A DNA stretch of 64,000 nucleotides from an uncultured bacterium (GTDB lineage: Bacteria; Actinomycetota; Acidimicrobiia; Spongiisociales; UBA5794), in the NCBI GenBank assembly GCA_963801165.1, contig CAWDDT010000011.1:416001-480000 (forward strand). The letters are read 5' to 3'. Positions 17,221 through 34,339 of the stretch are shown one piece after another (the first letter of the stretch is position 1; each line of letters opens with the position of its first letter). Position numbers and translations under genes: made by a program. The notes under the pieces are model-generated. The model ran no database searches. It saw only the letters and a list, made by a program, of their open reading frames with translations, and had not been told where the DNA came from.

Positions 17221-19258
17221 TTGCTAACGCTGCTCCTATGACTCCGATTGGTTCGAGTTCGATATCTGGGGGAAGTTCGGGGTAAGCGAGAGCCGGTACG
17301 TCGAGTCCCATGCCGCGGAGGCTCTTGGTGAGCGGTCCACGCAGGGCCTGACCGACGACCAGCGCACACGGCTTCTGGGCCCTCGCCGCTGCTCCGGCGA
17401 GGTGGTCGACGTCGATACGCACGACGTCGAGCTTGGAGGGGTCCATCACGAGGAATATCTGCCCGTCGACCTCCCGCAAGGACTCGTGCATACCGGCTTC
17501 GAGGCTGGGGGCAAGGGTCATCACTGCGAGGTGTCCCTCCGGGGCAATCCTGGCGACGATCGAGCGACCGACCGCCACCCGGGCAGCGGAGGCCAATTGC
17601 TCGGCCGACTTCGTCTCGCGGGCACGGTTGGAGATGACCTCGACGATCGGCCCAAGGTCTCGAATCGAGACCCGGTCCTCGAGCAGCTTCCTCAGCACGC
17701 CGTGGAGCAGACCGAGCGGGAGGACCTCGGTCGATACCTCGTTGGCCAGGATCGGCTCGTCGTATCGAAGGCCGTCGACAAGGGCCTGGACGTCCTGCCG
17801 GCTCAGCAGCGAGGCGGCATTGGATCTGACCACCTCGGCCAGGTGGGTGACGATGACCGAGGAGCGGTCCACAGCGGTTGCACCGGTAGCGGCTGCGGCC
17901 GCTCGGGCCGAATCCGCCACCCAGAATGCCTTGAGCCCGAACACCGGCTCTACCGTCTCCGTTCCTCCCATGGCGCGCAGCTCCTCGCCGTCGCCGAGCG
18001 GAAGCGCCAGGATCTGATCTTGCGGTGCGGTCCCCCGCCCTACCTCGGTGCCGCGCAGCACGATGCTGTAGGTCGCAGGCGGGAGCGACACGTCGTCCCG
18101 CGTTCGGACGAACGGCATCACAACCCCGAGCTCGAGAGCGATCTGGCGGCGCAGCGACTTGACCCGATCGAGCAGGTCGCCCTTCTTGCCCGGATCTATG
18201 AGATCGAGGATGTCATAGGAGAGACGCAGCTCGAGCGGCTCGACTCGCATCTCCCCCATGAGCGCCTCGGGGGCATCGGGGTCGAACGCGACCGAAAGCG
18301 TCGCGTCGGCCTCGCTTGGCTCGATAGCGTCGAGAGCTGCCCGCCTGCTGCTGGCGAAGATGAGAATGCCGGCGAAAGCGAAGAACGGGATCTTGGGAAG
18401 ACCGGGCAACATGCCGAGACCCGCTACCGAGATGCCGGCAAAACGCATGGCTCTGGCGTTGCCAAACAGCTGGCTGCCGATCTCGGAACCGATGTCCTTC
18501 TCCGAACCTACCCTGGTCACGAGCAGGCCGGTAGAGATAGAAATCAGCAAAGCGGGAATCTGGCTCACCAGACCGTCACCAACCGAGAGCAACGAGAACG
18601 TGCTGACGGCCTCCGAGAAATTCATCCCGAGGACGCCCATCCCGACGGCCAGTCCGCCGAACAGGTTGATGACGACGATAACGATGCTGGCGATAGCATC
18701 GCCCTTGACGAACTTGGCGGCACCATCCATCGCCCCGTAGAAGTCTGCCTCGGTGGCGATGCGCTTGCGTTGAGCTCTCGCCTGGGTTTCGTCGATCAGA
18801 CCCGCACCCAGGTCGGCGTCGATGGCCATCTGCTTGCCGGGCATTGCGTCCAACGTGAACCTCGCCGCCACCTCGGCGACACGGGTGGCACCGTTGGTGA
18901 TGACAACGAACTGGATGACGATCAGGATCAGGAACACGACCAGACCGACGATCACCGAACTGCCGATCACGAAATTGCCAAAGGTGTCGATGACCTTCCC
19001 CGCGTTGCCGTCGAGGAGGATGAGCCTGGTCGAGGAGACATTGAGGGCCAGCCGGGTCAGCGTCGTCACCAGCAAGAGCGACGGGAACACCGAGAAATCG
19101 AGGCTGTCCGAGAGAAGGATGACACCGAGCAGCACGAGAACGGAGATCGTGATGTTGGCCGCCAGCATCGTGTCGAGCACCGTGGCCGAGATGGGAATGA
19201 TCATCATCAGGATCACCCCGATGAGGGTCATGGGAACGACAACCGAGGAGCGCTTCAT
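17213..19258 (-). CDS. flhA: Flagellar export gate FlhA
   Basis: RVAEVAARFTLDAMPGKQMAIDADL, FYGAMDGAAKFVKGDA. Confidence 0.98.
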   Translation of the reverse strand: MKRSSVVVPMTLIGVILMMIIPISATVLDTMLAANITISVLVLLGVILLSDSLDFSVFPSLLLVTTLTRLALNVSSTRLILLDGNAGKVIDTFGNFVIGSSVIVGLVVFLILIVIQFVVITNGATRVAEVAARFTLDAMPGKQMAIDADLGAGLIDETQARAQRKRIATEADFYGAMDGAAKFVKGDAIASIVIVVINLFGGLAVGMGVLGMNFSEAVSTFSLLSVGDGLVSQIPALLISISTGLLVTRVGSEKDIGSEIGSQLFGNARAMRFAGISVAGLGMLPGLPKIPFFAFAGILIFASSRRAALDAIEPSEADATLSVAFDPDAPEALMGEMRVEPLELRLSYDILDLIDPGKKGDLLDRVKSLRRQIALELGVVMPFVRTRDDVSLPPATYSIVLRGTEVGRGTAPQDQILALPLGDGEELRAMGGTETVEPVFGLKAFWVADSARAAAAATGATAVDRSSVIVTHLAEVVRSNAASLLSRQDVQALVDGLRYDEPILANEVSTEVLPLGLLHGVLRKLLEDRVSIRDLGPIVEVISNRARETKSAEQLASAARVAVGRSIVARIAPEGHLAVMTLAPSLEAGMHESLREVDGQIFLVMDPSKLDVVRIDVDHLAGAAARAQKPCALVVGQALRGPLTKSLRGMGLDVPALAYPELPPDIELEPIGVIGAALANA

Positions 19259-20301
19259 GCGACCTTCCTTCGGGGCCGGCGCCTATAGGCGACCGCAAGC
19301 ACGGCGGCCACCGCCTCGAACAGGTTCGCCGGGACGAACCCACCCAGCTTGACCCGCCGGTAGAGCGTCCGCGCCAGGGGCTTGTTCTCGACGAGGGGAA
19401 CACCGTTACGGCGGGCTTCGGCGCGGATCTTGGCGGCGATTCTGTTGGCGCCCTTGGCTACGATCCGGGGCGACGGCTCATCGGGTTCGTACTTCAGGGC
19501 GATGGCCAGCCGGGTCGGGTTGGTGATCACGACATCGGCGTTGGCCACATCGAAGATCATCCGGTTCCGGCTCATCTCCCGGGCACGCTGCCTCCGGGCC
19601 GACCGGACCATCGGGTCACCCTCAGACCGCTTGAACTCCTCCCGCATCTCCTGCTTGGTCATCTTCATCTCTTTGTTGTGACGGACGCGGGTGACGGCGT
19701 AGTCGGCACCGGCGATGACGACGGCAAGGCCGGCGGCCCGCAGCACGATGGCCCACACCTGGTCTCCGGTAAAAGAGATAGCGTCGATAATCCCCAGCGG
19801 CTCGCCGAGACGGTCCATCCAGGCCATCAGGGGCCCCCAGATGAATGCGACCAACAGCCCTACCTTGCCCACAGCCTTGACCAGCTCCCACATGAACACG
19901 GATGCCTTGAACCGGTTGAGGCCCTTCTTGAGGGAGAGGTTGGAGAGCTTGGGCTTTGCGGCCTTGGGGGCGATAGTGAACCCGACCTGGGCGACACCAC
20001 CGGCGATCCCAAAGACCACGGCGGCGACCAGGAACGGGACCAGCCCGACCAGGAGCATCGCCAGGACGTCCCCCTGGAGCTGTGGCTGAATCGTCCCCGT
20101 ACCGGCGACGGATAGGATGGAACGAACCCGCTCCGTTATGGCGCCGGCGGCGGGAGGGGCCATGAAACGGATGGCCAGGACGAGCATGATCATCGAGAGC
20201 GCAACGCCGACTTCCTGGGACTTGGCGACGCGACCCTCTTGGCGGGCATCCCGCTTACGTCGCTCTGACGGCTTTTCTGTCTTGTCCTGAGAACGGCTCA
20301 C
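19255..20301 (-). CDS. flhB: Flagellar export switch FlhB
   Basis: KTEKPSERRKRDARQEGRVAKSQE, KMTKQEMREEFKRSEGDP, NPTR autocleavage-site variant; GTG start 20301. Confidence 0.95.
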   Translation of the reverse strand: MSRSQDKTEKPSERRKRDARQEGRVAKSQEVGVALSMIMLVLAIRFMAPPAAGAITERVRSILSVAGTGTIQPQLQGDVLAMLLVGLVPFLVAAVVFGIAGGVAQVGFTIAPKAAKPKLSNLSLKKGLNRFKASVFMWELVKAVGKVGLLVAFIWGPLMAWMDRLGEPLGIIDAISFTGDQVWAIVLRAAGLAVVIAGADYAVTRVRHNKEMKMTKQEMREEFKRSEGDPMVRSARRQRAREMSRNRMIFDVANADVVITNPTRLAIALKYEPDEPSPRIVAKGANRIAAKIRAEARRNGVPLVENKPLARTLYRRVKLGGFVPANLFEAVAAVLAVAYRRRPRRKVA

Positions 20302-20367
20302 GCACGACTCCGGTAGTCGGTTCAGCCATTCCATTGGCAACGAAGCCGATCCTTCGGCCTTGTGACC

Positions 20368-20394
20368 CTGTCGGCGGGTGCGGAGACGACGTAA
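20368..20394 (-). promoter_or_regulatory. sigma28-type promoter for flhB-flhA operon
   Basis: TTAC-N15-GCCGACAG. Confidence 0.7.
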
Positions 20395-20531
20395 GGGGGT
20401 TGTGCGACGGGCGACAGACTCGGGACATTGGTCCCTAGCCACCGGCCGGCAGCCGAAGCAGAATGGATTCTCTGCTCGAGTCTGCGCCTCGGCAGCGGAG
20501 GGAAGATACCGGCTCACAAAGGAGTAGGCGG

Positions 20532-21629
20532 ATGGCCATTGAGGTTCGCAAGGTCGTGCTCGAGAGCGTCAGCGATGCATCTGGTCTGGCGGCTCTGATC
20601 GATGAGGGCGTCTTTGACGCCGACGGGGTGATCGCCGTCGTCGGCAAGACCGAAGGCAACGGCGGCGTGAACGACTTCACCCGCATCCTGGCCGACCAGG
20701 CGTTTCGCAAGGTCCTCATGGACAGGGGCACCCGCACCGAGGCGGAGGTGAAGGAGATCCCGATGGTCTGGTCGGGCGGCACCGACGGGATACTCTGCCC
20801 GCACGCCACGGTTTTTGCCCGGGTCACTACCGACGAGCCGGCAGGCGACGAGCCCCGGCTTGCCGTCGGGTACGCCATGAGCGACGTGATCCTTCCAGAG
20901 GACATCGGCCGCCCGGCGATGGTCGCCAAGGTGGCCGAGGGTGTCCGGAGAGCGATGAAGAAAGCCGGCATCGAAGACCCGGCCGATGTGCACTACGTCC
21001 AGACGAAGACCCCTTTGCTGGTGATGGAGACGATCAACGACGCCAAGTCGCGGGGAATGACCGTGTACACCGAGGATCCGCTCGAATCGATGAATGTGTC
21101 AAACGGCACCTCGGCACTCGGCATCGCGGTAGCGCTCAGTGAGATCGACATGCCTACCGCCGACCAGATCGGGCACGACCTCAGCCTGTACTCGTCTGTG
21201 GCCTCGTGCTCCTCGGGTGTCGAGCTGGATCAGGCACAGACGGTCGTCGTCGGCAACGTGCGCGGTGCCGGAGGTCGCTACCGCATCGGCCACGACGTGA
21301 TGCGGGATGCCCTCGACTTCGAAGGCGTGTACCGCGCCATTCGGTCCGCCGGTCTCGATCTGCCGGAGCGGGCGAGAGCCGAGGACCTGGACGGCAGGCT
21401 GGTCAACGTCTTCGCCAAATGCGAGGCGGACCCGACGTCCCGGTTGCGCGGACGGCGCCAGGTGTCGCTGGACGACTCGGATGTTCACCACCACCGGCAC
21501 ATCAAGGGCGCCGTCGGCGGTGTAATCGGCGCCGCGGTGGATGACGCCGCCGTATTCGTGTCTGTCGCCGCCCTGCACCAGGGCCCGAGCGGCGGAGGGC
21601 CGGTAGCGGCCATCGTCGACGTGGGATAG
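20532..21629 (+). CDS. bar: Barbiturase (cyanuric acid hydrolase/barbiturase ring-opening amidohydrolase family, barbiturase subgroup)
   Basis: [40 protein letters not shown](G), [34 protein letters not shown]; barbiturase-type N/K/SV residues rather than AtzD R/R/SG. Confidence 0.9.
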
Positions 21630-21631
21630 GG

Positions 21632-22471
21632 ATGATCTGTCCCGAGACGGCTGAAGTCGAGCGATCCCCGGTGCCCGTACGGGTGCCGGGGGTCGCGAGC
21701 ACGGCGATCCACGGTCTTCTCACAGGTATGGGAGCCGAGGCGACGGTGCTCGGCAGCTCCAGCCAGGCGGCGTGGCTACAAGCGGGCAGACGAGTTGTGG
21801 TGATCTCGACCGGTGACGGCGCCCGCCTCCCCAACAGCATCCGCCTCGCAGCAAAGTATGGAGACGAGGTGCTGCGGCGGATTGCCTCCGAAACCCGGGT
21901 ACTGGTCGGGCACGGCATGATCATGGTCGATGGCATCGCCGTTACGGCAACCAGGTGGTGGGACCCCCGTCCCGCACTTCCCACGTTCACCAGCGACACG
22001 TTGACAGCTCGCCTCCGGGGTCTTCCTGCCGGAGTTCCCGGCATCGACACGGCGTCGCTGCGGCTGGCTCTCGAAGTGGGCTCAGCGGGAGGGGTCCTGC
22101 ACTCGGCGCGTTCGCTACTCGGCAGAGGACCGGGCCTCACGCCCGAAGGAGACGACGTCCTGGCCGGTACACTGGCAGCAACCCGATTGCTCGGAGAGGC
22201 ACTCGGGCGAGAGAACAGCGTCGCCATGATTGCCGGCGTCTCGCCGCCTCTGGCCGAGCTCGCCGCACTACGAACGACCGCGTTCTCGGCGGCGCTCATC
22301 GAGATGGCGATGCAGGGCCAGGTGGTCGAGTCTGCGGGAGTGCTGTTGCGGGCGCTCGCCGGTCGCGGCGATGTCGCCGCCGCCCACCTCGGTTTGATCC
22401 GACTTGGGCACACATCCGGACCTGCCCTCGCTGCAGGCATCGTCTTGGGAGCACGTTCGCTAGTCAAATAG
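21632..22471 (+). CDS. DUF2877 protein (YlbF/AllH-like)
   Basis: LLGRGPGLTPEGDDVLAG and LGHTSG motifs. Confidence 0.85.
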   Translation: MICPETAEVERSPVPVRVPGVASTAIHGLLTGMGAEATVLGSSSQAAWLQAGRRVVVISTGDGARLPNSIRLAAKYGDEVLRRIASETRVLVGHGMIMVDGIAVTATRWWDPRPALPTFTSDTLTARLRGLPAGVPGIDTASLRLALEVGSAGGVLHSARSLLGRGPGLTPEGDDVLAGTLAATRLLGEALGRENSVAMIAGVSPPLAELAALRTTAFSAALIEMAMQGQVVESAGVLLRALAGRGDVAAAHLGLIRLGHTSGPALAAGIVLGARSLVK

Positions 22472-22490
22472 GCGTCAACGGAGGTTGGTG

Positions 22491-23921
22491 ATGGTTTCTC
22501 GAGTGGAGATACACCCCGGGCGGTACCACGACTCGGTTCGCCTGATGCAGGCGAGCAAGACACTCCAGAGTGTGCCGGGTGTAACGGACGCCCTCGTAGC
22601 GATGGCGACCGAGCTCAACCTGGCTCTACTCGCCGAGATGGGCTTCGATCTGACGCTCACAGCAGACGCCGGCCCCAACGATCTCGTGCTTGCCGTGAGG
22701 GCCGACAACGAGGAGGCGATCGCCGCCGCGAACCATGCCCTCGATGAAACTCTCAGCAGCAGGGCGGCGCCCGACGGAAGCCTCGACGCGCCTTCTCCAA
22801 AGAGGATCGGGTCGGCGGCAGATCTGAATGGGGCGAACATCGTGCTGCTATCGGTGCCGGGCGAACACGCCTTCGTCGAGGCAGCCGAGGCTCTCGACAC
22901 CGGACGCCACGTGATGATCTTCAGCGACAACGTGCCGCTGGAGCAGGAGCTCGTCCTGAAGAGACGCGGCGTGGAGCGCAAGCTGCTTGTGATGGGACCC
23001 GACTGCGGAACCGCCATCGTCCACGGACTCGGCCTGGGCTTCGCCAACGCCGTGCAACCGGGACCGGTCGGGATAGTCGGTGCCTCGGGGACGGGCATCC
23101 AACAGGTTTGCTGTCTCCTCGATGATGCGGGGGTCGGGGTCCGCCATGCGCTGGGGACGGGCAGCCACGATCTATCGGAGGAGATCGGCGGGCTCGCCAC
23201 TCTCCAGGCTCTGGCCGCCCTCGACGCCGACCCGTCAGTTGCGGTCATCGCGGTCATCTCCAAGCCGCCCGCTGCCACCGTTGCCGACAGGGTTCGAGCT
23301 GCGGCCGCCGGCTGCTCGAAACCGACCGTCATCATCTTCATGGGCGAAAGCACGCTAGAGGATGGCACCACGAAGATCCTGGATCGACTCGAGAAGCCTC
23401 CCGCCACCTACAGCACGTGGCCCACCGACCAGGATGGACATCGCCCCGGTACGGTGCGCGGGTTGTTCTCGGGCGGCACCCTGCGCGACGAAGCCCGTTT
23501 TGCGGCGACGCCCGGTCTCGGCGCCATAGGAAAGCACGAGGGCGAGACCGGCCATTGTTTCATCGACTACGGCGACGACGAGTACACGAGAGGGCGGGCG
23601 CATCCAATGATCGACCAGACGGTGCGTATCGATCGGCTGCGGGCAGCCACCGCCGATCCGTCGGTCGGGGTGATTCTCATCGACGTGGTCCTCGGCTACG
23701 GAGCCAACGCCGATCCGGCGCCTGAACTGGTCCCGGCGATCCAGCAGGCCGTCGCCGCCGGAGCGGCGGTCGTCATCTCCCTCTGCGGCACCGGCCGGGA
23801 CCCGCAGAATCGGGACCGGCAGGCAGAGATGCTCCAGGCGGCCGGTGCTTCCGTGTTGGTGTGCAACGCCGCGGCGGCCCGCGAGGCAGCCCGGCTGGCA
23901 ACGATAGGGAGTCAAGCATGA
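22491..23921 (+). CDS. fdrA: FdrA-family acyl-CoA synthetase-like protein (AllF-like)
   Basis: YHDSVRLM, LSVPGEHA, VMIFSDNV, VMGPDCGTA, GIVGASGTGIQ, RGLFSGGTL, IDYGDDEYTRGRAHPMID. Confidence 0.9.
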   Translation: MVSRVEIHPGRYHDSVRLMQASKTLQSVPGVTDALVAMATELNLALLAEMGFDLTLTADAGPNDLVLAVRADNEEAIAAANHALDETLSSRAAPDGSLDAPSPKRIGSAADLNGANIVLLSVPGEHAFVEAAEALDTGRHVMIFSDNVPLEQELVLKRRGVERKLLVMGPDCGTAIVHGLGLGFANAVQPGPVGIVGASGTGIQQVCCLLDDAGVGVRHALGTGSHDLSEEIGGLATLQALAALDADPSVAVIAVISKPPAATVADRVRAAAAGCSKPTVIIFMGESTLEDGTTKILDRLEKPPATYSTWPTDQDGHRPGTVRGLFSGGTLRDEARFAATPGLGAIGKHEGETGHCFIDYGDDEYTRGRAHPMIDQTVRIDRLRAATADPSVGVILIDVVLGYGANADPAPELVPAIQQAVAAGAAVVISLCGTGRDPQNRDRQAEMLQAAGASVLVCNAAAAREAARLATIGSQA

Positions 23922-25336
23922 CCGACCTCAACGAGCTCCTCGACACCGAGCCACGCGTGGCGACCGCGGGTGCGGACATGCTTGCCGACTCGATCGAGCA
24001 GCAAGGATCCGCCGTTTCCCGCGCCGACTGGCGCCCCCCGGTTCCCGGCACGGAAGCCGCGCTGGCCGATCTCGCCGCCGACGGGCGGATAGCCGAGGCC
24101 AACCGGACCGCCGTCGACCGCATGCTGGCAGTCCGCCCGCACCTGGCGGATGTCCGAACGGCACGGGAAGTGTTCCCCGACATGTCGGGCCGGACCCTGT
24201 TCCATGCCGGACCTCCGATCGACTGGGCTCGTGCCTCCGGCCCGATGCGCGGAGCAATCATCGGTGCGATGCTCTACGAAGGCTGGGCCGATGACGCGGA
24301 CGACGCCGCCACCCGGGCCGCTCACAACGAGGTCGAGCTCTCCCCGTGTCACCACCATGGCGCCGTGGGTCCGATGGCGGGCGTGGTCTCCCCGTCGATG
24401 CCGATCGCGGTCATCGAGGATGGAGCCGGTGCCGGAGTCTCGTACGCAACGCTGAACGAGGGTCTCGGCAAGGTCCTCCGCTACGGAGCGTTCGCTCCCG
24501 AGGTGATCGACCGGCTGCGATGGATGGATCGGGTACTCGGACCGGTGGTCGCCGCCGTGCTTCACGACCACGGTCCCGTCGATCTCCGATCGCTGATAGC
24601 CCAGGCTCTGCAGATGGGCGACGATGGGCACAACCGCAACCGCGCCGTCACCTCGCTGTTTCTTCGCGAAATCGGGGCCACTCTCGTCGCCGGCGCCGAT
24701 GCCACCGTCGACCAACGGCGCGAGGTGTTCGAGTTCATCAACAACAACGACCATTTCATGCTCAACCTGGTGATGGCCGCGGGCAAGCTCGCAGCCGATG
24801 CGGCTTCCGGCGTCCCCGCCTCGAGCCTCGTCACCGCCATGGCGCGCAACGGGACCGACTTCGGGATACGGTTGTCCGGAACGGGTGACCGCTGGTTCGT
24901 CGCACCGGCACCTCCCGTGGTCGGGCTCTACCTGGGCGGATACACCGAGGAGGACGCCAGCCCGGACATCGGTGACTCAACCATCACCGAGACGGTCGGG
25001 ATCGGTGGGTTCGCCATGGCCGCGGCACCCGCGATCGTCGGGTTCGTCGGCGGCACCGCCGCCGGTGCGGTACGGCGCACCCTCGCCATGTACGAGATCA
25101 CGGTGACCGAGCACCCGGCGTACCAGATCCCCATGCTCGAGTTCCGCGGCACACCCACCGGCATCGACGCCGCCAGGGTGGTCCGCACCGGTGTCGTGCC
25201 GCAGATCAACACCGGCATCGCCGGCAAGGTGCCGGGAACCGGCATGGTTGGCGCCGGCCTCGTCGAAGCCCCGATGCAGTGCTTCGCCGATGCCGTGCAG
25301 GCGCTGGCCGGAACGATCACAAGTCTGTCTACGTAG
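23918..25336 (+). CDS. DUF1116 protein (YlbE/AllG-like)
   Basis: HAGPPI, PCHHHGAVGPMAGVVSPSM, LNEGLGKVLRYGA, QMGDDGHNRN, DIGDSTITET. Confidence 0.88.
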   Translation: MTDLNELLDTEPRVATAGADMLADSIEQQGSAVSRADWRPPVPGTEAALADLAADGRIAEANRTAVDRMLAVRPHLADVRTAREVFPDMSGRTLFHAGPPIDWARASGPMRGAIIGAMLYEGWADDADDAATRAAHNEVELSPCHHHGAVGPMAGVVSPSMPIAVIEDGAGAGVSYATLNEGLGKVLRYGAFAPEVIDRLRWMDRVLGPVVAAVLHDHGPVDLRSLIAQALQMGDDGHNRNRAVTSLFLREIGATLVAGADATVDQRREVFEFINNNDHFMLNLVMAAGKLAADAASGVPASSLVTAMARNGTDFGIRLSGTGDRWFVAPAPPVVGLYLGGYTEEDASPDIGDSTITETVGIGGFAMAAAPAIVGFVGGTAAGAVRRTLAMYEITVTEHPAYQIPMLEFRGTPTGIDAARVVRTGVVPQINTGIAGKVPGTGMVGAGLVEAPMQCFADAVQALAGTITSLST

Positions 25337-25374
25337 CCCGGTATACAATTTGTCAAAGATGGAGGAGGTTGGCT

Positions 25375-26259
25375 TTGGTCATCGCCAAGGATTTCGAGTA
25401 CCACCGCCCCACGACGCTGCAAGAGGCGTCGCAGCTTCTCGCCGACCACCCCGGCACGGCCCGAGTTCTCGCCGGAGGCACGGATCTGATCGCCTGGCTG
25501 CGCGACGGCGCGGTCGACCCCGACCTCGTGGTCGACATCAAATCCATCCCGGATCTGCACGACCTCAGCCTCGATGGCGACACGTTGCACATCGGGTCGT
25601 TGGTCACTTTCACCGATCTCATCCGCTCCGAGCTCATCGAGGCACGCGCACCTCTGTTCGCAGAGATGGCAGAGACCGTGGCTTCTCCCGGTATCCGCAA
25701 CCGGGCCACGTTGGTCGGCAATATCTGCTCGGCCATCCCATCTTGTGATGCCGGACCGGTGCTGCTGGCTTACGACACTACGGTCCACCTCGCAGGACCC
25801 GGCGGCACCAGAAGCGTCGGCATCAACCAGTGGTTCACGGGCCCGCGCCGAACCGTACGAAGTGACGACGAGATCGTTACGCATCTCACTGTCGCCGTAC
25901 CCACCCACGGTGGCGCCTACGTCAAGCTGATGCGTTACGCAGGTGAGGATCTCGCCCAGGCGGCCGTAGGCATCGTCGTGCTGCGCGGTGACGAGTACCG
26001 GGTGGCGTTTGGCGCGGTCGCCCCCACCCCGATCCGGTCGGCCCGGATCGAAGACGTACTTCGTGGAAGGCCACTCAGCGACGATCTCATCGCGGAGGCG
26101 GCTGCCATGGTCAAGGACGAGATCAGCCCGATCACCGACATAAGGGCAACCGCCACCTACCGCATCCGGATGACGGAGGTCATGCTGGAGCGTGGTCTTC
26201 CGGTGGCGAGAGACAGGCTCGATGGAAAAGGACCAGCGTACGGCACACGACTCATCTGA
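25375..26259 (+). CDS. Molybdenum hydroxylase FAD-binding subunit (XdhB/CoxM family)
   Basis: FEYHRPTTLQEA, VLAGGTDL, IRNRATLVGNIC, PITDIRAT; GGAGGAGG SD. Confidence 0.92.
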   Translation: MVIAKDFEYHRPTTLQEASQLLADHPGTARVLAGGTDLIAWLRDGAVDPDLVVDIKSIPDLHDLSLDGDTLHIGSLVTFTDLIRSELIEARAPLFAEMAETVASPGIRNRATLVGNICSAIPSCDAGPVLLAYDTTVHLAGPGGTRSVGINQWFTGPRRTVRSDDEIVTHLTVAVPTHGGAYVKLMRYAGEDLAQAAVGIVVLRGDEYRVAFGAVAPTPIRSARIEDVLRGRPLSDDLIAEAAAMVKDEISPITDIRATATYRIRMTEVMLERGLPVARDRLDGKGPAYGTRLI

Positions 26260-26290
26260 GACCCGATCGAGATGGGGTGAGAGGACAGCA

Positions 26291-26779
26291 ATGGAGTTAA
26301 CGATCAATGTCAACGGAGAGCGCTGGGACATCGATGTCGCCCCCAACGATGTGCTTCTCGACGTCCTCCGCGAGAGGGTCGGTGTCAAGAGCCCCAAGAT
26401 CGGATGCGAGCGTGGGGACTGTGGATCGTGCACCATCCTTCTCGACGGAACCACTGTCCGCAGCTGTCTCGTGCTGGCGATCGAAGTCGACGGTCATGGG
26501 ATAACCACCGTCGAAGGTATCGGCCATGACGAGCTCAGCCACTTACAGAATCTGCTGCTCCAAAACAACTCGTTCCAGTGTGGGTTCTGCGCACCGGGTA
26601 TCGTGCTGGCGGCCACCGAGCTGCTCGACAACAACCCGAACCCGACCCGACATGACGTTCAGGAGGCTCTTGCCGGCAACCTGTGCCGGTGCACCGGATA
26701 CGAACCGATAATCGAAGCGGTCTTGAGGGCGGGTCATCCCGTTGAATCGGGGGCCGACTTGCAGGGAGGTACCACGTGA
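26291..26779 (+). CDS. Molybdenum hydroxylase 2Fe-2S subunit (CoxS family)
   Basis: GCERGDCGSCT..SC and FQCGFCAPG..GNLCRCTGY. Confidence 0.95.
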   Translation: MELTINVNGERWDIDVAPNDVLLDVLRERVGVKSPKIGCERGDCGSCTILLDGTTVRSCLVLAIEVDGHGITTVEGIGHDELSHLQNLLLQNNSFQCGFCAPGIVLAATELLDNNPNPTRHDVQEALAGNLCRCTGYEPIIEAVLRAGHPVESGADLQGGTT

Positions 26780-29154
26780 CCACGACATATCCGTTCGAAG
26801 CCGACGCACCCGTCAAAGAGCTGCAATCAGTCGGCACCGGGGCGATCCGCATCGACGGTCTGGAGAAGATCAGCGGCGCCGCTCAGTTCGTCGACGACAT
26901 CGACTTCGGCCCCGGGTTGCTGCACGCAGCCATCCTGGAGAGCCCGCACGCTCATGCCCGCATCGTCTCGATAGACACAGCTAAGGCTGAGAACGCTCCG
27001 GGCGTGGTGAAAGTCGTGACCGGCAAGGACTTCCCGTACAAGTTCGGCATGTACATGGAGGACCGCTACATCTTCGCCCAGGATCACGTCCGGTTTGCCG
27101 GCGAGCAGGTCGCCGGTGTAATCGCCCGTTCCCATCGGCAAGCCGTCCAGGCGCTCGAGCTGATCGACGTCGAGTACGACGTGCTGACACCGCTGTTCGA
27201 TCCCAAGGAGGCGGTGGCAGACGGAGCAGATCTAATCCACCCGGATCTCGGCAACTACACCCATGTGCCCTGGTTCTTCCCGACTGCGAACACCAACATC
27301 GCCCACTGGCGCAAGGTCCGCAAAGGCGATACCGAGAAGGCGTTTGCCGAGGCGGACTTCGTCCTGGCCGACACTTACCGGGTTCCCCGTTACGCCCACT
27401 GCGCCATCGAGCCGCACGTCACGGTAAGCAAGCTCGACCATGCCGGCAGGTTGACCGTTTGGACCGCATCGCAATCGCCGCATACCCAGCGGCACCTCTT
27501 CGCCGAGGCACTTGCCCCCCTCGGGTTCACCCACAAAGACGTCAGGGTGATCACCCCGTACATCGGTGGCGGCTTCGGCGGCAAGGCCGGGGTCTCGATG
27601 GAGATCATGGGGGCGGCCATGGCCACCCTGGTCAAGGGCCGGCCGATCAAGATGCGTTGGACGCGGGAACAGGAGTTCTACAACACCTACCAGCGCCAGG
27701 GCGTCATCGCCGAGTTGAAGGTCGGCGTCATGAACGACGGCACCATCACCGCGGTCGAGCACAAGCTCTACTGGGACGCAGGCGCTTACGTCGAATACGG
27801 CGCAAACGTGGTCAACGCCGCCGGTCTTTCGGCGAGCGGTCCCTACCGGGTGCCCAACATCACCAACGACTCGCTGTGCGTCTACACCAACCTGCCGCCC
27901 GGTGGGCCGTACCGCGGCTTCGGGTACTCGGAGTTCCACTTCGGTCTCGAATCGCACATGGACCGCATCGCCGAGGCGATCGGGATGGACCCGGTGGAGT
28001 TCCGCAAGAAGAACGCCATAGAGGAGGGCGACGAGCTCGCCTACGGCGCCCATATGAACCCGTCGGGTCTCATCGAGGCGATCGACAAGGTTGCTGCCGC
28101 CATCGAATGGGGCGTCCCGGAGGAATCGGCTAACCCGAACACAGTGATGGGCAAGGGAATCGCGTGCTTCTGGAAGGCGCCGGCGATGCCGCCAAACGCC
28201 TCGTCTGCCTCGTTTCTCAAGTTCAACGAAGACGGCAGCATCAACATCAGCGTGTCCGGCATGGAGCTAGGGCAGGGCTACCTGACCGTGATGGCCCAGA
28301 TCGCTTCGGAGATCCTCACCGTTCCGGTGGCGAAGATCAGGGTCGAGACACCCGATACCGACCGCAACCCGTACGAATGGCAGACGGTCGCCTCCCACGT
28401 CACGTGGAGCTCGGGGCTCGCTGTCGAGAAGGCAGCGGTGGAGGCGCGGGCGAAGATCTTCGAGGTGATCCACGAGGCCTACGGCTACGAGGACGACTCG
28501 CTGTACCTGGAGGACGAGAGTGTCCGCTGCACGACCGACCCGGGGTTCGCCAAACCACTACGTGAATTCGTCATCGACGGCATCCAGACCGACGACGGCA
28601 CCTGGAGGGGCGGACCGATCATCGCCAGCGGAAAGTTCATGCCCGATTTCACAAACGCCAACAGCGATCCCGAGACCGGGCAAGGCGGACATCCCAACGT
28701 CCATTACACGGTCGGCACCTGCGGGGTGGTGCTCGAGATCGACAAGGACACCGGGCGGATCTGGGTACGCAAAGCGGCACTCGCGGTCGACGCCGGTCGT
28801 GCCATCAACCCGGACCTTGTCAAAGGGCAGATCGTCGGCGGTCTGGTGCAAGGCCTCGCCACCGTGCTCTATGAGGACATGCGCTTCGACGAGAACGGCA
28901 AGATGCTGAATCCGACGTTCACCGACTACAAGATCCCGACGGCCTTCGACATCCCGGACGAGATCGTACCGATCATCGTCGAGGTGCCCCAGCCCGACGG
29001 CCCGTTCGGAGCCCGCGGGGTCGGCGAGCACACCATGATCGCCGCAGCCCCTGCGATCGCCAACGCGGTCTACAACGCTCTGGGAACCCGTATCACGTCG
29101 ATGCCGGTCACCCAGGAGAAGATTGCAATGTCGCTACTCGAGAAGAGGAGTTGA
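26776..29154 (+). CDS. Molybdenum hydroxylase Mo-binding subunit (xanthine dehydrogenase family; candidate uracil/thymine dehydrogenase)
   Basis: SPHAHARI, GGGFGGK, YRGFG, ELGQG, AINPDLVKGQIVGG, GPFGARGVGE. Confidence 0.93.
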   Translation: MTTTYPFEADAPVKELQSVGTGAIRIDGLEKISGAAQFVDDIDFGPGLLHAAILESPHAHARIVSIDTAKAENAPGVVKVVTGKDFPYKFGMYMEDRYIFAQDHVRFAGEQVAGVIARSHRQAVQALELIDVEYDVLTPLFDPKEAVADGADLIHPDLGNYTHVPWFFPTANTNIAHWRKVRKGDTEKAFAEADFVLADTYRVPRYAHCAIEPHVTVSKLDHAGRLTVWTASQSPHTQRHLFAEALAPLGFTHKDVRVITPYIGGGFGGKAGVSMEIMGAAMATLVKGRPIKMRWTREQEFYNTYQRQGVIAELKVGVMNDGTITAVEHKLYWDAGAYVEYGANVVNAAGLSASGPYRVPNITNDSLCVYTNLPPGGPYRGFGYSEFHFGLESHMDRIAEAIGMDPVEFRKKNAIEEGDELAYGAHMNPSGLIEAIDKVAAAIEWGVPEESANPNTVMGKGIACFWKAPAMPPNASSASFLKFNEDGSINISVSGMELGQGYLTVMAQIASEILTVPVAKIRVETPDTDRNPYEWQTVASHVTWSSGLAVEKAAVEARAKIFEVIHEAYGYEDDSLYLEDESVRCTTDPGFAKPLREFVIDGIQTDDGTWRGGPIIASGKFMPDFTNANSDPETGQGGHPNVHYTVGTCGVVLEIDKDTGRIWVRKAALAVDAGRAINPDLVKGQIVGGLVQGLATVLYEDMRFDENGKMLNPTFTDYKIPTAFDIPDEIVPIIVEVPQPDGPFGARGVGEHTMIAAAPAIANAVYNALGTRITSMPVTQEKIAMSLLEKRS

Positions 29155-29160
29155 GCGCAC

Positions 29161-29919
29161 ATGTCTGTTGATCTGGAGAAGATCCTGCGGCCGGTCGAGC
29201 ATCCGATGACGCCGTACGATCCCAAATACATGATGCTCGCCAGCGGTGAGGCGGTGGTGGTCCGGCAGGTGTTCCGGGACGAGATCCCCGATCTCCTCAA
29301 GCACGTCGAGCCGCTGATCCATGTAGAGCGCGACTTCTACGACGTTGTGGCGGCCCGCGTCTACGCCGAGCTGCTCGGCTACTACAGATACCGGTTCCAA
29401 GACCAGTACGTGCTGGCACTCCAGGTCGACGGCGAGCTGGCTGCCATCGTCAACGGGCGCCAGATCAACCCCAAGCTGGGTCTGTCGCTGCACACGCTGG
29501 CAATGCGGCGCGGGCTACGGGTGGGCGCGCACGGGTTCGCCGCCAAGATGGAGTATCACATCGACACTCTCGGTCACGACGAGGTTCTCGTCGTTGCCGA
29601 GTCCCCGATCGGATTCAGGCGCTGGATGCTCGAGTACGAGTTGGAGAAGCGCTTCGACACTCCCCATGAGCTCGGTGGCGTCCCATCGTGGGCGCTCACC
29701 CGTGAGCTGTTCAACAGGGCCCGTTCCAAGCTGGTTGTGGGGAGACGCCCGGTGCCTCCCGACATCCTCGGCAAGGCAATGGAGAAGATCCTGCCGCCGT
29801 CGGATCCGCCGACACCGCCGCTCGATCCGATGGCCGCCACGAGGGCGCTGTACGACCCGACCGGTACGGCCCTCGTCCAGCAGCGCTGGGAGATGGAGAA
29901 AGGGATGGAGCATGCGTGA
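29161..29919 (+). CDS. Uncharacterised GNAT-fold-like protein
   Basis: VLALQVDGELAAIV beta strand and RRGLRVG motif-A-like segment; tightly linked in the operon. Confidence 0.55.
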   Translation: MSVDLEKILRPVEHPMTPYDPKYMMLASGEAVVVRQVFRDEIPDLLKHVEPLIHVERDFYDVVAARVYAELLGYYRYRFQDQYVLALQVDGELAAIVNGRQINPKLGLSLHTLAMRRGLRVGAHGFAAKMEYHIDTLGHDEVLVVAESPIGFRRWMLEYELEKRFDTPHELGGVPSWALTRELFNRARSKLVVGRRPVPPDILGKAMEKILPPSDPPTPPLDPMAATRALYDPTGTALVQQRWEMEKGMEHA

Positions 29920-31087
29920 CGTGTACGTAGCCGGGATCGGCATCACCACCTTCACCCGGCTCGAGTACCCGTTGACGGAGATCGCCGCCTACGCCTCGAT
30001 GATGGCTCTCCGGGATGCCGGCGTCACCGAGGTCGACCAGATCTACGTCGCCAATATGGGAGCGGCGAGGATAAACCATCAGACCGCACTTGCCAGTGCC
30101 GTGGCCGACAGCCTCAGCCTGCTTCCGGCGGGCGCCGCCTCTATCGAGAACGGCCCTGCGTCCGGTGCTGCCGCCATCAAGGCCGGCTTCCAGGCGGTTG
30201 CGTCGGGGATGGACGACGTCGTGCTGGTGGCCGGGGCGGAGCGGATGCGCGAGGTCAACAACCTCGAGGCAACCGATTTTGTCGCCACCCTCACCCATCC
30301 GATCACCGAGTACATCTACGGGGTGACCCTGCCGGCGCACGCCGCCATGTTCGCCCGGCTCTACATGGACAGATACGGTGTCACCGAACGGCATCTCGCC
30401 ATGGTCGGCGTCAAGAACCAGAACGCCGCTCTCAACAATCAGTGGGCTCATCTGCAACAGGCGATCACGCTCGAGGGCATCCTCGACTCGCCAGAGGCGA
30501 TGACCAACAACCCGTACGTTGCCGAGCCGTTGCGCTTCTTCGATGCCTGCCCGGTCTCCGATGGCGGGGCAGCTCTTGTGCTGGTCTCCGAGGAGAAGGC
30601 TCGGGAGTTGGGCCGGCCCATGATCCGCATCACAGGGATCGGGCAGGCAACCGACACGCACGCCGTCTTCGAGCGGGAGGAGCCGACAGATCTGCTCGCA
30701 GTTCGCCTGGCGGCAAATGCCGCCTACGAGATGGCGGGCGTCGGCCCCGAGGACATCGACGTCGCGGAATTGCACGACGCTTTCACCATCCTCGAGATCG
30801 CCGAGAGCGAGGAGGTCGGCTTCTTCCCCAAGGGCGAGGGACACCTGGCGTTGGAGAAGGGCGACACCGCGCTCGGCGGCAAGATCCCGATCAACGTCGG
30901 CGGCGGGCTCAAGGGCCGCGGCCACCCGGTGGGGGCAACCGGCGTCGCCCAGGCATGGGAGATCGTCACCCAACTGCGTGGTGACGGCGGCAAGCGTCAG
31001 GTAGAGGGCGCCAGGACCGGGCTGACCCTCAACTTCGGCGGATTCGGCAACAACGTCGTCTGCCTGATTTTCCAGAGGGAGGACTGA
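29912..31087 (+). CDS. SCP2/archaeal-type thiolase-family protein lacking the nucleophilic Cys
   Basis: IENGPASG (normally ENACASG), CPVSDGGAA, ELHDAFTILE, GGLKGRGHPVGATG. Confidence 0.9.
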   Translation: MRDVYVAGIGITTFTRLEYPLTEIAAYASMMALRDAGVTEVDQIYVANMGAARINHQTALASAVADSLSLLPAGAASIENGPASGAAAIKAGFQAVASGMDDVVLVAGAERMREVNNLEATDFVATLTHPITEYIYGVTLPAHAAMFARLYMDRYGVTERHLAMVGVKNQNAALNNQWAHLQQAITLEGILDSPEAMTNNPYVAEPLRFFDACPVSDGGAALVLVSEEKARELGRPMIRITGIGQATDTHAVFEREEPTDLLAVRLAANAAYEMAGVGPEDIDVAELHDAFTILEIAESEEVGFFPKGEGHLALEKGDTALGGKIPINVGGGLKGRGHPVGATGVAQAWEIVTQLRGDGGKRQVEGARTGLTLNFGGFGNNVVCLIFQRED

Positions 31088-31434
31088 TGGCTCGCGAGAT
31101 CTACGCATACAAGTGTCGGCGGTGCGGGACTTTGCACTACCCGATGCGCATGGTGTGCAAGGGCTGCAAGCAGAACGACTTCTTCGAGTTCGACGCGGTG
31201 CCGCTGCCGAAGACCGGCAAGCTGGTCACCTTCACTACGGTGTACAACCTGCCGGCACAGTACGAGGTACCCACGCTCGGGCTGGGCGTAGTCGAACTCG
31301 AGAACGGGATGCGCATGCTGGGACAGATCGAGATCGACAACCCCAAGATCGGGATGCCGGTCAAGGGGGCGGTCAGAATCGTCCGCCGTGAGGCATACGA
31401 CAACTATTACGGGATGGTCTTCTCCGCGGCGTGA
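31087..31434 (+). CDS. DUF35 Zn-ribbon/OB-fold protein (thiolase partner)
   Basis: KCRRCG..YPMRMVCKGC, GKLVTFTTV, GVVELENG. Confidence 0.9.
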   Translation: MAREIYAYKCRRCGTLHYPMRMVCKGCKQNDFFEFDAVPLPKTGKLVTFTTVYNLPAQYEVPTLGLGVVELENGMRMLGQIEIDNPKIGMPVKGAVRIVRREAYDNYYGMVFSAA

Positions 31435-31532
31435 CCGGCGGCTCGGTACCAAAGACGCCGTCCTGCTTCCGGCGTATCTGAGGCCGGTGTCCCGGCACCA
31501 TATACGCAGGAACCAGACGTGGTCGTGACCCT

Positions 31533-32297
31533 CTACATCATGCCCCGCAACGCGGTGCGGAAGGTGTCCTGGACGATGTGGAGCACACCGTCCATCGTCT
31601 CGGGGACGAGCAAAAGGACTGCGCCGACGCTGGCGAACGCGGCGAACAGCTTGATCGGCAGGCCGATGAGGAACACGTTGGACTGCGGGGCGAACCGGGC
31701 GGCGATGCCGAGGACGACCTCCGCAATGAACAGAGCAGCCAGCGCCGGCATCGCCATCTCGACCGCCCCGATGAGCATGCGGCCCATCAGGTCGAGAGCG
31801 ACGTCGGCGAGCCCGCCCGACAAGGCGATAGTCCCCGTGATCGGCACGGCGTCGAAGCTGAGGCGGAGACCGGCTACGAGCAGATGGTCACCGCCGAGCA
31901 CTAGAAACAGGGTCACCGCCATCACGTTGAAGATCCGGCCGAAGATGGTGACCCGGTCATTGGACATCGGGTCGAAGACCTGCGCCACGCTCAAGCTCGA
32001 GGTGAAGTCGATCAACGCTCCTCCAACCGTGAACAGGTAGAAGATGAGCCCGGTCAGGAAGCCCAGGGTCAGTCCGACCACGGCGTTGGTGAACCCGGCG
32101 GTGAGCAGCACCGCGACATCACCGGAGCCGGCGACCGGGGAGGCGAAAGTGAGACCGAGCGCCAACACGAGAGCGGTCCGCCCCAGCTTCGGGATGGGCT
32201 TGAAGATCGGGGAAACGATGACGAAACCAACAACACGGATCCCGGCGAGCAGCATCCCCGCCACCCAGTCGGCATTGACCACGAGGTCGATGTTCAT
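31533..32297 (-). CDS. fliR: Flagellar export protein FliR
   Basis: Polytopic; VFDPMS, LFLVLGGDHLL, ARFAPQSNVFLIGLPIK. Confidence 0.92.
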   Translation of the reverse strand: MNIDLVVNADWVAGMLLAGIRVVGFVIVSPIFKPIPKLGRTALVLALGLTFASPVAGSGDVAVLLTAGFTNAVVGLTLGFLTGLIFYLFTVGGALIDFTSSLSVAQVFDPMSNDRVTIFGRIFNVMAVTLFLVLGGDHLLVAGLRLSFDAVPITGTIALSGGLADVALDLMGRMLIGAVEMAMPALAALFIAEVVLGIAARFAPQSNVFLIGLPIKLFAAFASVGAVLLLVPETMDGVLHIVQDTFRTALRGMM

Positions 32298-32301
32298 GGC
32301 G

Positions 32302-32571
32302 CTAGCCCGAAATCGTCGGGATGAGCGACCAGAGCGAGATGACCCACGCCGTCAGGGTGTGGATCATCCACTGACCCGAGAACAGCACGATGAGCCCCAT
32401 CACCACCAGCTTGGGGACAAATGTGAGCGTCATCTCCTGGATCTGAGTGATCGTCTGCAGCAGCGACACGGCAACGCCGACGAACAGGGCCGCCATGAGC
32501 ATCGGGCCGGCGATTGTTGCCGCGATCCGGAACGCGTTGCTGACGATCTCGATGACCTGGGCATCGGTCAT
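32302..32571 (-). CDS. fliQ: Flagellar export protein FliQ
   Basis: SLLQTITQIQEMTLTFVPKL. Confidence 0.96.
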   Translation of the reverse strand: MTDAQVIEIVSNAFRIAATIAGPMLMAALFVGVAVSLLQTITQIQEMTLTFVPKLVVMGLIVLFSGQWMIHTLTAWVISLWSLIPTISG

Positions 32572-33449
32572 CAGAGGGCCCCCCGCACTGATTGCACCAC
32601 CGATCCGATCAGCAACGCCCAGCCGTCGACGAGAACGAACAGCAGCAACTTGAGGGGTAACGAGATGAAGACGGGTGGCAGCATCACCATGCCCATTGAC
32701 ATGAGAACGGCGGCCACGATCAGGTCGATGACGAGGAACGGCACGAAGATCACGAAGCCGATGATGAAGGCGGTGCGCAGCTCGGAGATTATGTACGCCG
32801 GGATCAGCGTGCTGGCCGGCACGTCCGCCTCGGTCTCCGGCTGCGGCTGGCCGGACATGTCCATGAAGAGCCTCAGATCATCTTCCCGAGTCTGCGACAG
32901 CATGAAGTCCCGGAAGGGCGCATAGCCCGCCGACACCGCTTCTGCCTGCCCGATCTCGCCATGGAGTAGAGGTTGGATGGCAACATCGTTCACCTCGCTG
33001 AAGACCGGTCCCATGACAAAGATCGTGAGGAACATCGCAAGCCCGATGAGAACCTGTGACGGCGGGATCGTCTGCACCCCGATGGCGTTCCTGGTGAGAC
33101 CGAGAACGATGATGAACCTGGTGAACGACGTCATCAGGAGCAGGATGCTGGGAGCTACCGCACCGACGGTAAGCAGCAGGATGATGATGACGGTGTTCGA
33201 GAGCGTGCCGCTGTCGGACTCGACCTTGAGCGAGATGTCGGGGATGTCCTCGACCCGGGGCACCTCGACAAGAGGGGTGGCCGTTGTGGGTGTGGTCGCG
33301 CTGGCATCGGGCGTCGTGGTCGTCGTCACGACGGTCGTTGCCGTCGCAGGCTCCGAGAACGGGGCTGGCTGCTGGGCAGCGGCCGAGCCGGTCACGATGC
33401 CGACAACCAGGACTGCAGCTACAACGAGAGCTCTACTTACGGCCCGCAC
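32571..33449 (-). CDS. fliP: Flagellar export protein FliP
   Basis: LMTSFTRFIIVL, IPAYIISELRTAF, MGMVMLPP..SLPLKLLLFVLVDGW. Confidence 0.97.
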   Translation of the reverse strand: MRAVSRALVVAAVLVVGIVTGSAAAQQPAPFSEPATATTVVTTTTTPDASATTPTTATPLVEVPRVEDIPDISLKVESDSGTLSNTVIIILLLTVGAVAPSILLLMTSFTRFIIVLGLTRNAIGVQTIPPSQVLIGLAMFLTIFVMGPVFSEVNDVAIQPLLHGEIGQAEAVSAGYAPFRDFMLSQTREDDLRLFMDMSGQPQPETEADVPASTLIPAYIISELRTAFIIGFVIFVPFLVIDLIVAAVLMSMGMVMLPPVFISLPLKLLLFVLVDGWALLIGSVVQSVRGAL

Positions 33450-34241: not shown

Positions 34242-34298
34242 CGTACCTCCGTGATTTCCGGTCTGGATCGGGCCGCTGTATCTGCGGCTGCAGCCATT

Positions 34299-34325
34299 CC
34301 GTCGGCCGGATCAGGTACCAATCAA
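34299..34325 (-). promoter_or_regulatory. sigma28-type promoter for fliNOPQR
   Basis: TTGA-N15-GCCGACGG. Confidence 0.72.
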
Positions 34326-34339
34326 GGGTTCGTCTCGAA

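Follow-up and report, generated by a model that had tools for sequence, protein, structure and literature searches.

The ten-gene cluster described here, which begins with a putative barbiturase gene (bar), occupies positions 20532-31434 of the window, that is, of the whole 64,000-nucleotide stretch of DNA that was analysed (contig C11:416001-480000 of a 4.55-Mb genome, 98% complete). On balance we favour the reading, based on sequence comparison with known enzymes and related genomes, that it encodes an oxidative pyrimidine catabolic route in which the last nitrogen-releasing step would be phosphorolytic. An initial annotation of the window had put forward such a route. Its core, the formation of carbamoyl phosphate, has gained support from the specificity signature of the barbiturase, from the synteny and co-occurrence of bar with genes of an AllFGH-like carbamoyltransferase, from the carbamate kinase, permease and molybdenum (Mo) hydroxylase genes found with them, from the clade to which the AllG-like subunit belongs and from a genome search in which no urease was found, whereas its other half, in which a thiolase was to lead the carbon skeleton into coenzyme A (CoA) chemistry, has not.

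The proposed route would consist of five steps. A three-subunit Mo hydroxylase might oxidise uracil (perhaps thymine) to barbiturate, and the barbiturase, a step well supported by homology, would open the ring to ureidomalonate (N-malonylurea). According to the gene context the AllH/AllF/AllG-like enzyme could then convert ureidomalonate and phosphate to carbamoyl phosphate and malonamate, and a carbamate kinase could use carbamoyl phosphate and ADP to give ATP, NH3 and CO2. The weakest step is the last one, where our best guess is that a complex of a GNAT-fold, a thiolase-like and a DUF35 protein with a CoA site would convert, and maybe decarboxylate, the malonyl-type C3 remnant. Since ureidomalonate is oxalurate extended by one methylene, it should be splittable at the same bond, and carbamoyl phosphate is probably made, because the carbamate kinase that stands between bar and the trio in other genomes would otherwise be senseless. 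We infer from this gene context that phosphorolysis is the best reading of the third step.

The amidohydrolase carries the barbiturase signature

The protein encoded by bar matches PF09663 over profile positions 1-358 of 358 (E 3.4e-142) and TIGR02714 with 503 bits. Its best match in the PDB is the barbiturase 5hwe (E 6.4e-157, 525 bits), whereas the six cyanuric acid hydrolases 5t13, 6bum, 6dhj, 4bvq, 4nq3 and 5hy0 give 205-308 bits, with E values of 6e-91 or weaker. In Peat 2013 (PMC3758960) Arg195, Thr321, Arg325, Gly345 and Gly346 are given as the specificity positions of AtzD, and Asn, His, Lys, Val and Ser/Ala as their barbiturase counterparts. Alignment to 5hwe and a comparison across loci both place Asn/His/Lys/Val/Ala (NHKVA) at these five positions of the bar protein, which is the barbiturase type, and the pattern NHKV[A/G/S] was found in 91 of the 92 loci with a long match. 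The lone exception (locus L100 of genome G086), 46% identical to bar, has RTRGG, the cyanuric acid hydrolase signature. By homology it is well supported that the amidohydrolase of the window is a barbiturase (EC 3.5.2.1) of group VI of the Toblerone-fold enzymes of Peat 2013, in line with the assignment that the initial annotation had made.

The reading of the bar protein as a cyanuric acid hydrolase, prompted by the NCBIfam model NF052395, was rejected on the basis of the barbiturase signature and of the much closer match to 5hwe. Genes with this signature are probably labelled AtzD by automatic annotation.

The AllH/AllF/AllG-like trio

All three subunit families of the AllFGH oxamate carbamoyltransferase (EC 2.1.3.5) were recognized by Pfam behind bar. 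The AllF-like subunit is 41% identical to E. coli FdrA/AllF over 474 residues and reaches 418 bits with NF004760 (FdrA), slightly below the cut-off of 433; the AllG-like subunit is 46% identical to E. coli YlbE/AllG, and the AllH-like subunit 35% identical to E. coli YlbF/AllH in the C-terminal 125 residues. The AllF fold is related to that of succinyl-CoA synthetase alpha. The purified E. coli AllFGH complex is described as an oxamic transcarbamylase characterised with carbamoyl phosphate and oxamate (PMC11326118). A 2025 paper reports allFGHK adjoining triuret/biuret genes in nitrifiers (PMC12625717), which fits with a broader substrate range of this family.

The allG gene of the cluster is the only one in this genome. 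A second AllH paralogue, 55% identical, lies at C5:57898-58686, and no second AllG or FdrA was found with these queries. Oxalurate is disfavoured as the substrate of the trio, because no homologues of allC and allE were found in the genome (tblastn, E 1e-10, 50% coverage); for allB and allD there are only relatives of about 30% identity, located on other contigs.

A tree of AllG sequences was calculated by a quick maximum-likelihood LG+G4 search, in which several long branches were flagged; the rows from L002-L081 were the loci with numbers divisible by 3 together with nine named ones, and 12 genes were entered twice. All rows from barbiturase genomes, the AllG of the window among them, fell into one clade (51 rows, 10 of them duplicates; SH-aLRT 98), while E. 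coli AllG was placed elsewhere, with one actinobacterial sequence. The sister group of the barbiturase-linked clade comprises five sequences (L101, L113, L114, L119, L120) from clusters with a Mo hydroxylase.

Two of the loci outside the barbiturase-linked set have a composition of their own. L101 (G291:C3:660001-680000, 348-10714) contains Mo hydroxylase subunits, hydantoinase/oxoprolinase A and B, fdrA and allG, in a genome (G291) without barbiturase. In L100 (G086:C6:98001-118000, about 5400-12000) the gene of the RTRGG Toblerone enzyme adjoins a weakly DcuC-like transporter gene, AllF and AllG, and this locus may represent a parallel case of carboxybiuret or biuret phosphorolysis.

Linkage of bar, the trio and carbamate kinase in other genomes

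Relatives of bar, taken from one genome per species, number at least 406, and the closest 80 (71-92% identity) were used with 10-kb flanks; neighbours were called only from selected open reading frames (ORFs) that had been compared with Pfam/NCBIfam, and the GC3-based gene caller is noisy in high-GC DNA. The closest loci belong to Acidimicrobiia genomes assembled from metagenomes, and carriers are found among the genomes of Acidimicrobiia, Nitriliruptorales and Haliangium. At least 6 kb of sequence is available after bar in 48 of the 80 loci, and 46 of these 48 have both fdrA and allG. One of the remaining two has fdrA only, the other (L076) has neither, its AllG standing at the start of another contig. 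The survey of bar neighbourhoods that the initial annotation had suggested thus gave a divided answer: fdrA and allG are near-universal companions of bar, whereas the thiolase-like and DUF35 genes follow the Mo hydroxylase of the type present in the window (type I) and not bar. The concern that the gene combination might not be conserved elsewhere did not materialise. Dozens of other genomes contain these genes with their order preserved, and the arrangement is therefore not due to chance.

AllG was detected in 16/16 other barbiturase-clade genomes (69-74% identity; the count includes the unpublished G268), against a background of 52/401 in the phylum sample (the unpublished G268, G239, G174 and G018 included). 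Ten genomes have bar and allG within 20 kb, and by tblastn all ten also possess carbamate kinase and fdrA; allH was found in nine of them (not detected in G123 by tblastn), an NCS2 permease in nine, and Mo hydroxylase subunit genes after the set in a different nine, the set of the tenth genome (G151) being at a contig end. In G097 and G165 the trio is 28-44 kb away from bar, where it is accompanied by a permease and a Mo hydroxylase, and the carbamate kinase is directly upstream of bar. Carbamate kinase occurs in 15/80 loci, usually directly after bar, and its identity is given by the carbamate kinase subfamily model NF009007 of NCBIfam (296-299 bits vs the cut-off of 266). As a side observation, the loci L021 (14652-15686) and L024 (14770-15702), two close relatives in which the Mo block is missing behind allG, have as their next gene a member of the PF04655 aminoglycoside/hydroxyurea kinase family.

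The window itself has no carbamate kinase, as had been noted in the initial annotation, and the permease is also absent from the operon. A search of the genome, which that annotation had recommended, yielded one arcC-class gene, at C4:94724-95653. This gene stands (C4:91000-97000; L147, about 7000-12500) in a row with a carbamoyltransferase gene of the OTCase family and genes of two pyridoxal phosphate-dependent enzymes, with a GntR/UTRA regulator gene adjoining, and the row looks like another catabolic carbamoyltransferase cluster. Neither urease alpha nor, above the cut-off, urea carboxylase was found in this 98%-complete genome, and a urea-releasing ureidomalonase would consequently yield little nitrogen here.

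The Mo hydroxylase and the permeases

The flavin adenine dinucleotide (FAD), 2x[2Fe-2S] and molybdopterin subunits encoded after allG have the domains of the xanthine dehydrogenase family (Pfam). No equivalog was matched, since the scores for xanthine dehydrogenase, 4-hydroxybenzoyl-CoA reductase, CO dehydrogenase, PaoABC and glyceraldehyde dehydrogenase all stayed below the NCBIfam cut-offs (for example 512 vs 780 for XdhA and 481 vs 995 for the alpha subunit of 4-hydroxybenzoyl-CoA reductase). As PDB matches of the Mo subunit, CO dehydrogenases and xanthine oxidoreductases rank behind 4-hydroxybenzoyl-CoA reductase. Where at least 9.9 kb is available after bar (40 loci), 22 have type I, nine another type and nine no Mo hydroxylase in the stretch. 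A Mo hydroxylase thus follows allG in 31/40 of these loci, and in the 22/40 full-length loci with type I the block is situated directly after allG.

NCS2 nucleobase permeases lie within the bar clusters of other genomes. In the five close relatives whose type I block is separated from bar (discussed below), a permease gene follows the relocated block in 5/5 cases; the copy that was scanned (L154) has uracil permease as its best NCBIfam match, with 345 bits, below the cut-off of 477 and above that of the NCS2 superfamily. A permease 71% identical to the block-associated one is present in the genome of the window at C5:80780-82084, 22 kb from the second AllH paralogue. The uracil-permease-like neighbour is the best evidence, although indirect, that the type I Mo hydroxylase acts on a pyrimidine base, and on these sequence grounds the enzyme is a candidate uracil/thymine dehydrogenase. 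The genome contains ten paralogues of the Mo hydroxylase large subunit, distributed on seven contigs (tblastn).

The GNAT, thiolase-fold and DUF35 proteins

The GNAT-fold protein had no Pfam match even at E 10 and no NCBIfam match, and its family is rare (172 representatives at E <= 0.001 among 1.84 billion proteins). Its AlphaFold2 (AF2) model (pLDDT 86, pTM 0.80) gave 68 matches at E <= 0.001 in a Foldseek comparison with the PDB, the listed ones being GNAT acetyltransferases with a best E of 5.6e-6, and the nearest Atlas clusters are named N-acetyltransferase. The label 'GNAT-like' of the initial annotation proved to be right by fold.

The thiolase-fold protein aligns end to end with archaeal-type thiolases (7yvy, E 8.7e-79) and retains the HDAF and GHP motifs, but the motif IEAACASG of 7yvy is replaced by IENGPASG, so that Pro82 stands at the position of the nucleophilic Cys (CxS motif). 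This Pro is invariant in the window, in 24/24 related loci, in two low-GC metagenome relatives (54% identity) and in the ten-sequence alignment A3. No thiolase acyl-enzyme is possible, because the acyl-accepting Cys is replaced, and a classical thiolase was rejected for this reason. Thiolase-fold proteins without that Cys are known as aldolases (Ltp2) or decarboxylases (KS-CLF, trypanosomal SLP). With Pro in place of Cys, and with the block being independent of bar, the earlier claim that a thiolase feeds the carbon skeleton to CoA chemistry is unsupported as it was written.

The best PDB match of the DUF35 protein is 6esq_E, the DUF35 subunit of the archaeal thiolase/HMG-CoA synthase (HMGCS) complex (E 1.9e-13). 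When the GNAT-fold protein was modelled against the thiolase-like and DUF35 proteins, the complex prediction reached a score of 0.75, and the best of three controls 0.00. This level is reached by 58/80 solved complexes and 2/110 mismatched pairs, calibration counts that hold roughly here, as custom alignments were used. At least 83% of the contacts are common to the three runs, with a partner pLDDT of at least 80, and the predicted interface is formed by loop 177-201 of the thiolase-like protein and by the region of the GNAT-fold protein that holds the RGLRVGA loop. Solved thiolase/DUF35 pairs exist and that part of the prediction may merely reproduce known structures; we know of no solved thiolase/DUF35 complex with a GNAT third partner. 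The model makes it probable that the three proteins are parts of a single enzyme.

When P0020, a distant member of the GNAT family, served as the query, 26 loci were obtained from metagenomes. Several low-GC loci (35-41% G+C; L124-L130, L142, L146) and L140 combine GNAT relatives with AllH and AllF, and L129 also has AllG. Two GNAT paralogues, together with a Mo subunit 67-71% identical to that of the window, occur in several of the low-GC loci, and thiolase-like and DUF35 genes are also present in L142 and L146. In L130, which was annotated, PF04199 cyclase/arylformamidase-like hydrolases, a lipoate-protein-ligase-like gene and DUF5714 (MbdU-like) were recognized; L146 has a GntR regulator.

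Gene layout and genomic setting

The ten co-oriented, closely spaced genes of the initial annotation were recovered at the same coordinates (Table 1), and its family names were borne out by Pfam for the families named. Neighbouring ORFs abut or overlap by a few bases when ORF coordinates are used, and the likely start of allG is an ATG that overlaps the fdrA stop.

Table 1. Genes of the putative pyrimidine catabolic cluster and its immediate flanks (window coordinates)
Feature	Coordinates	Strand	Families and remarks
bar, putative barbiturase	20532-21629	+	365 aa from ATG 20532; ORF opens at 20463; PF09663; Toblerone-fold ring-opening amidohydrolase
AllH-like subunit, DUF2877	21632-22471	+	PF11392, E 1.6e-20
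AllF/FdrA-like subunit	22485-23921	+	PF00549 (Ligase_CoA) and PF02629 (CoA_binding)
AllG-like subunit, DUF1116	23918-25336	+	PF06545, E 2.9e-91; ORF opens at 23861; likely start ATG 23918
Mo hydroxylase FAD-binding subunit	25279-26259	+	PF00941 and PF03450; start uncertain, Pfam match from ORF residue 38
Mo hydroxylase 2x[2Fe-2S] subunit	26192-26779	+	PF01799 and PF00111; start uncertain
Mo hydroxylase molybdopterin subunit (type I)	26776-29154	+	PF02738, PF20256, PF01315
GNAT-fold protein	29161-29919	+	252 aa; fold by AF2/Foldseek; without Pfam or NCBIfam match
Thiolase-fold protein without nucleophilic Cys (Pro82)	29912-31087	+	PF22691 and PF00108
DUF35 protein	31087-31434	+	zinc ribbon and OB fold; PF01796 and PF12172
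flhB (left flank, context only)	19255-20517	-	PF01312, E 4e-100
fliR (right flank, context only)	31533-32297	-	PF01311, E 4.9e-46

The cluster is surrounded by flagellar export and motor genes, with flhA and flhB on the left and fliR followed by motB and motA on the right (17213-20517 and 31533-36489). The 11-kb catabolic cluster is on the strand opposite to these genes and separates fliR from flhB, with the appearance of an insertion between fliR and flhBA. In the 80 related loci, flhA, flhB and fliR are all absent from the surroundings of bar. Public metagenome contigs from runs of different studies span both junctions (X1 and X2 that of flhB and bar, X2 and X4 that of DUF35 and fliR), and the placement between flhB and fliR is therefore not an artefact of a single assembly; one of the runs may be the source sample. 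Near-identical DNA is present in soil and salt-marsh metagenome runs, and no RNA run is listed among the sequencing runs that carry the stretch. A promoter and terminator scan of 20000-32500 gave 0 promoter-like and 3 terminator-like sites, below the level of shuffled sequence.

Evaluation of the pathway and of alternative explanations

The initial annotation had stated that it did not know such a route to be described, and this agrees with the literature: in full-text articles (those of subscription journals, and supplements, excluded) no paper was found that links barbiturase with AllFGH, no ureidomalonate carbamoyltransferase was found, and no genes were found assigned to ureidomalonase or uracil dehydrogenase. 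To our knowledge no sequence is known as a ureidomalonase, and the Rhodococcus dehydrogenase is likewise without an assigned gene.

Several observations weigh against the proposed pathway. All substrates in the cluster are ones that we infer, and the classical Rhodococcus work gives urea and malonate as products (cited in PMC3758960). The cyanuric acid amidohydrolase equivalog NF052395 scores 461 on the bar protein, above its cut-off of 360, although we take it that this model does not separate barbiturase from cyanuric acid hydrolase activity. The nearest PDB match of the type I Mo subunit is the alpha subunit of 4-hydroxybenzoyl-CoA reductase (E 1.6e-99), not a nucleobase hydroxylase, and two unrelated types of Mo hydroxylase, 28-30% identical, follow allG in different lineages. 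Furthermore, the block of GNAT, thiolase-like and DUF35 genes is tied to the type I hydroxylase, which is found without GNAT in no locus, and not to bar: in five close relatives, where the bar locus is without type I, an intact FAD-FeS-Mo-GNAT-thiolase-like-DUF35 block is located elsewhere in the genome, and in L038 and L039 the block is located upstream of bar. The Nitriliruptorales-type clusters are entirely without the block, and their permease scores higher for xanthine than for uracil permease. In this window both the carbamate kinase and the permease are outside the operon, and the C4 carbamate kinase may work for another pathway as well, or only for that one. Finally, no barbiturase match was found in the examined stretches of the low-GC block loci, where either the place of barbiturase is taken by a non-homologous hydrolase or the block acts on another heterocycle.

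Part of this could be explained by two unrelated modules standing side by side, bar and AllHFG serving barbiturate-type ureides, and the Mo/GNAT/thiolase-fold/DUF35 genes with the permease serving another heterocycle or an acyl-CoA. The position of the six-gene block elsewhere in 5/5 close relatives that do not have it at bar, its upstream position in two loci, its relatives in low-GC contigs with AllFGH and PF04199 hydrolases of their own and no barbiturase match, and the CoA-thioester substrate of the closest solved relative of the Mo subunit all speak for this division, which we regard as a minority possibility that has to be taken seriously. Nevertheless, all five genomes with the separated block still have bar and AllHFG, no type I Mo subunit occurs without GNAT, the block directly follows allG in more than half of the full-length loci, and the gene after the block is most like a uracil permease; additionally, barbiturase depends on a supply of barbiturate, for which the neighbourhood has no other candidate hydroxylase. 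It is considerably less probable that the trio uses CoA, or ATP and CoA, to split ureidomalonate at its other amide bond into malonyl-CoA and urea, and that the GNAT/thiolase-like/DUF35 proteins then turn malonyl-CoA into acetyl-CoA by decarboxylation. The CoA_binding and CoA-ligase domains of FdrA, the CoA-related folds of the downstream proteins and the classical products, urea and malonate (cited in PMC3758960), would all agree with such a reaction, but the E. coli homologue is a carbamoyltransferase that has carbamoyl phosphate and oxamate as substrates (PMC11326118), carbamate kinase genes are embedded in the bar clusters of other lineages, and urease and urea carboxylase were not found in this genome.

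All three subunits are clearly homologous to those of E. coli AllFGH, and the many Mo hydroxylase paralogues of the genome possibly include a xanthine dehydrogenase; an ordinary oxamate carbamoyltransferase for oxalurate in purine/allantoin breakdown, only incidentally placed beside barbiturase, is nevertheless very unlikely in view of the allC and allE genes not found under the tblastn thresholds given above, of the synteny of bar and the trio in 46/48 loci and of the position of the window AllG in a clade apart from that of E. coli. We give even slightly less credit to the explanation that the amidohydrolase is a cyanuric acid hydrolase and that the trio phosphorolyses carboxybiuret or biuret. 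The NF052395 score and the RTRGG enzyme of G086, adjoining AllF and AllG, can be cited in its favour, but the enzyme of the window has the NHKVA signature and is far nearer to 5hwe than to any cyanuric acid hydrolase, and barbiturate has been reported as an inhibitor of AtzD and not a substrate, and cyanurate as an inhibitor of barbiturase (PMC3758960).

The oxidative pyrimidine route with formation of carbamoyl phosphate, which we prefer to these alternatives, could also be part of a wider picture, which is put forward tentatively. AllFGH-type enzymes might be general acyl-urea phosphorylases whose clades act on specific ureides, namely oxalurate in E. coli, ureidomalonate beside barbiturase, perhaps carboxybiuret beside cyanuric acid hydrolase, and other ureides beside hydantoinase A/B or PF04199 hydrolases, and in the window such an enzyme would be combined with a new three-protein CoA enzyme converting the malonamate/malonyl remnant to acetyl-CoA. 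If this were true, pyrimidine breakdown would be connected to substrate-level phosphorylation, and ATP, nitrogen and carbon would be gained from the entire uracil ring.

Comparison with known systems

Biochemical knowledge of the oxidative pyrimidine pathway dates back to the 1950s, and the cluster supplies candidate genes for its uracil/thymine dehydrogenase step and for an alternative, energy-conserving last step. If the proposed route is true, the recently discovered AllFGH transcarbamylase family extends beyond oxalurate, and pyrimidines join the substrates that yield ATP through carbamoyl phosphate. The cluster also points to an undescribed, predicted complex of a GNAT-fold protein, a Cys-less thiolase-fold protein and a DUF35 protein. 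The route may count for nucleobase turnover in soil and salt marsh, since near-identical DNA was detected there.

The pathway of Rhodococcus erythropolis has in common with the cluster the barbiturase family with its specificity residues, and the cluster has a three-subunit Mo/FAD/Fe-S hydroxylase that could carry out the first step. The difference lies in the fate of ureidomalonate, which is hydrolysed to urea and malonate in Rhodococcus, whereas phosphorolysis to carbamoyl phosphate and malonamate is proposed here. With the AllFGH-AllK system of E. coli the cluster shares the three subunit families, the neighbouring carbamate kinase (in many barbiturase clusters, not in this window) and, as we propose, the chemistry, by which an N-carbamoyl amide would be converted to carbamoyl phosphate and the amide. 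The gene order is allH-allF-allG here and allF-allG-allH-allK in E. coli; moreover, there are no allantoin genes near the cluster, its AllG belongs to a separate clade, and the proposed substrate is one carbon longer.

The pairing of a thiolase-fold protein with a DUF35 protein is the same as in the complexes 6esq, 6ok1 (Ltp2-ChsH2), 7pxp (BbsAB) and 5m3k (PhlABC), all of which are among the PDB matches. In the archaeal thiolase-HMGCS-DUF35 complex a third protein, HMGCS, docks on the pair, as is predicted here for the GNAT-fold protein. Unlike in these complexes, the Cys is replaced by an invariant Pro in the cluster, and the third partner has a GNAT fold instead of being HMG-CoA synthase or KAS III-like. 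The cyanuric acid pathway (AtzD/TrzD with biuret and allophanate hydrolases) has the Toblerone fold of its first enzyme in common with the cluster, but the residues are of the barbiturase type here, and genes of biuret and allophanate hydrolases are absent from the operon according to Pfam and NCBIfam. Taken together, the cluster would combine the workings of the oxidative pyrimidine pathway of Rhodococcus with those of the AllFGH-AllK branch of E. coli.

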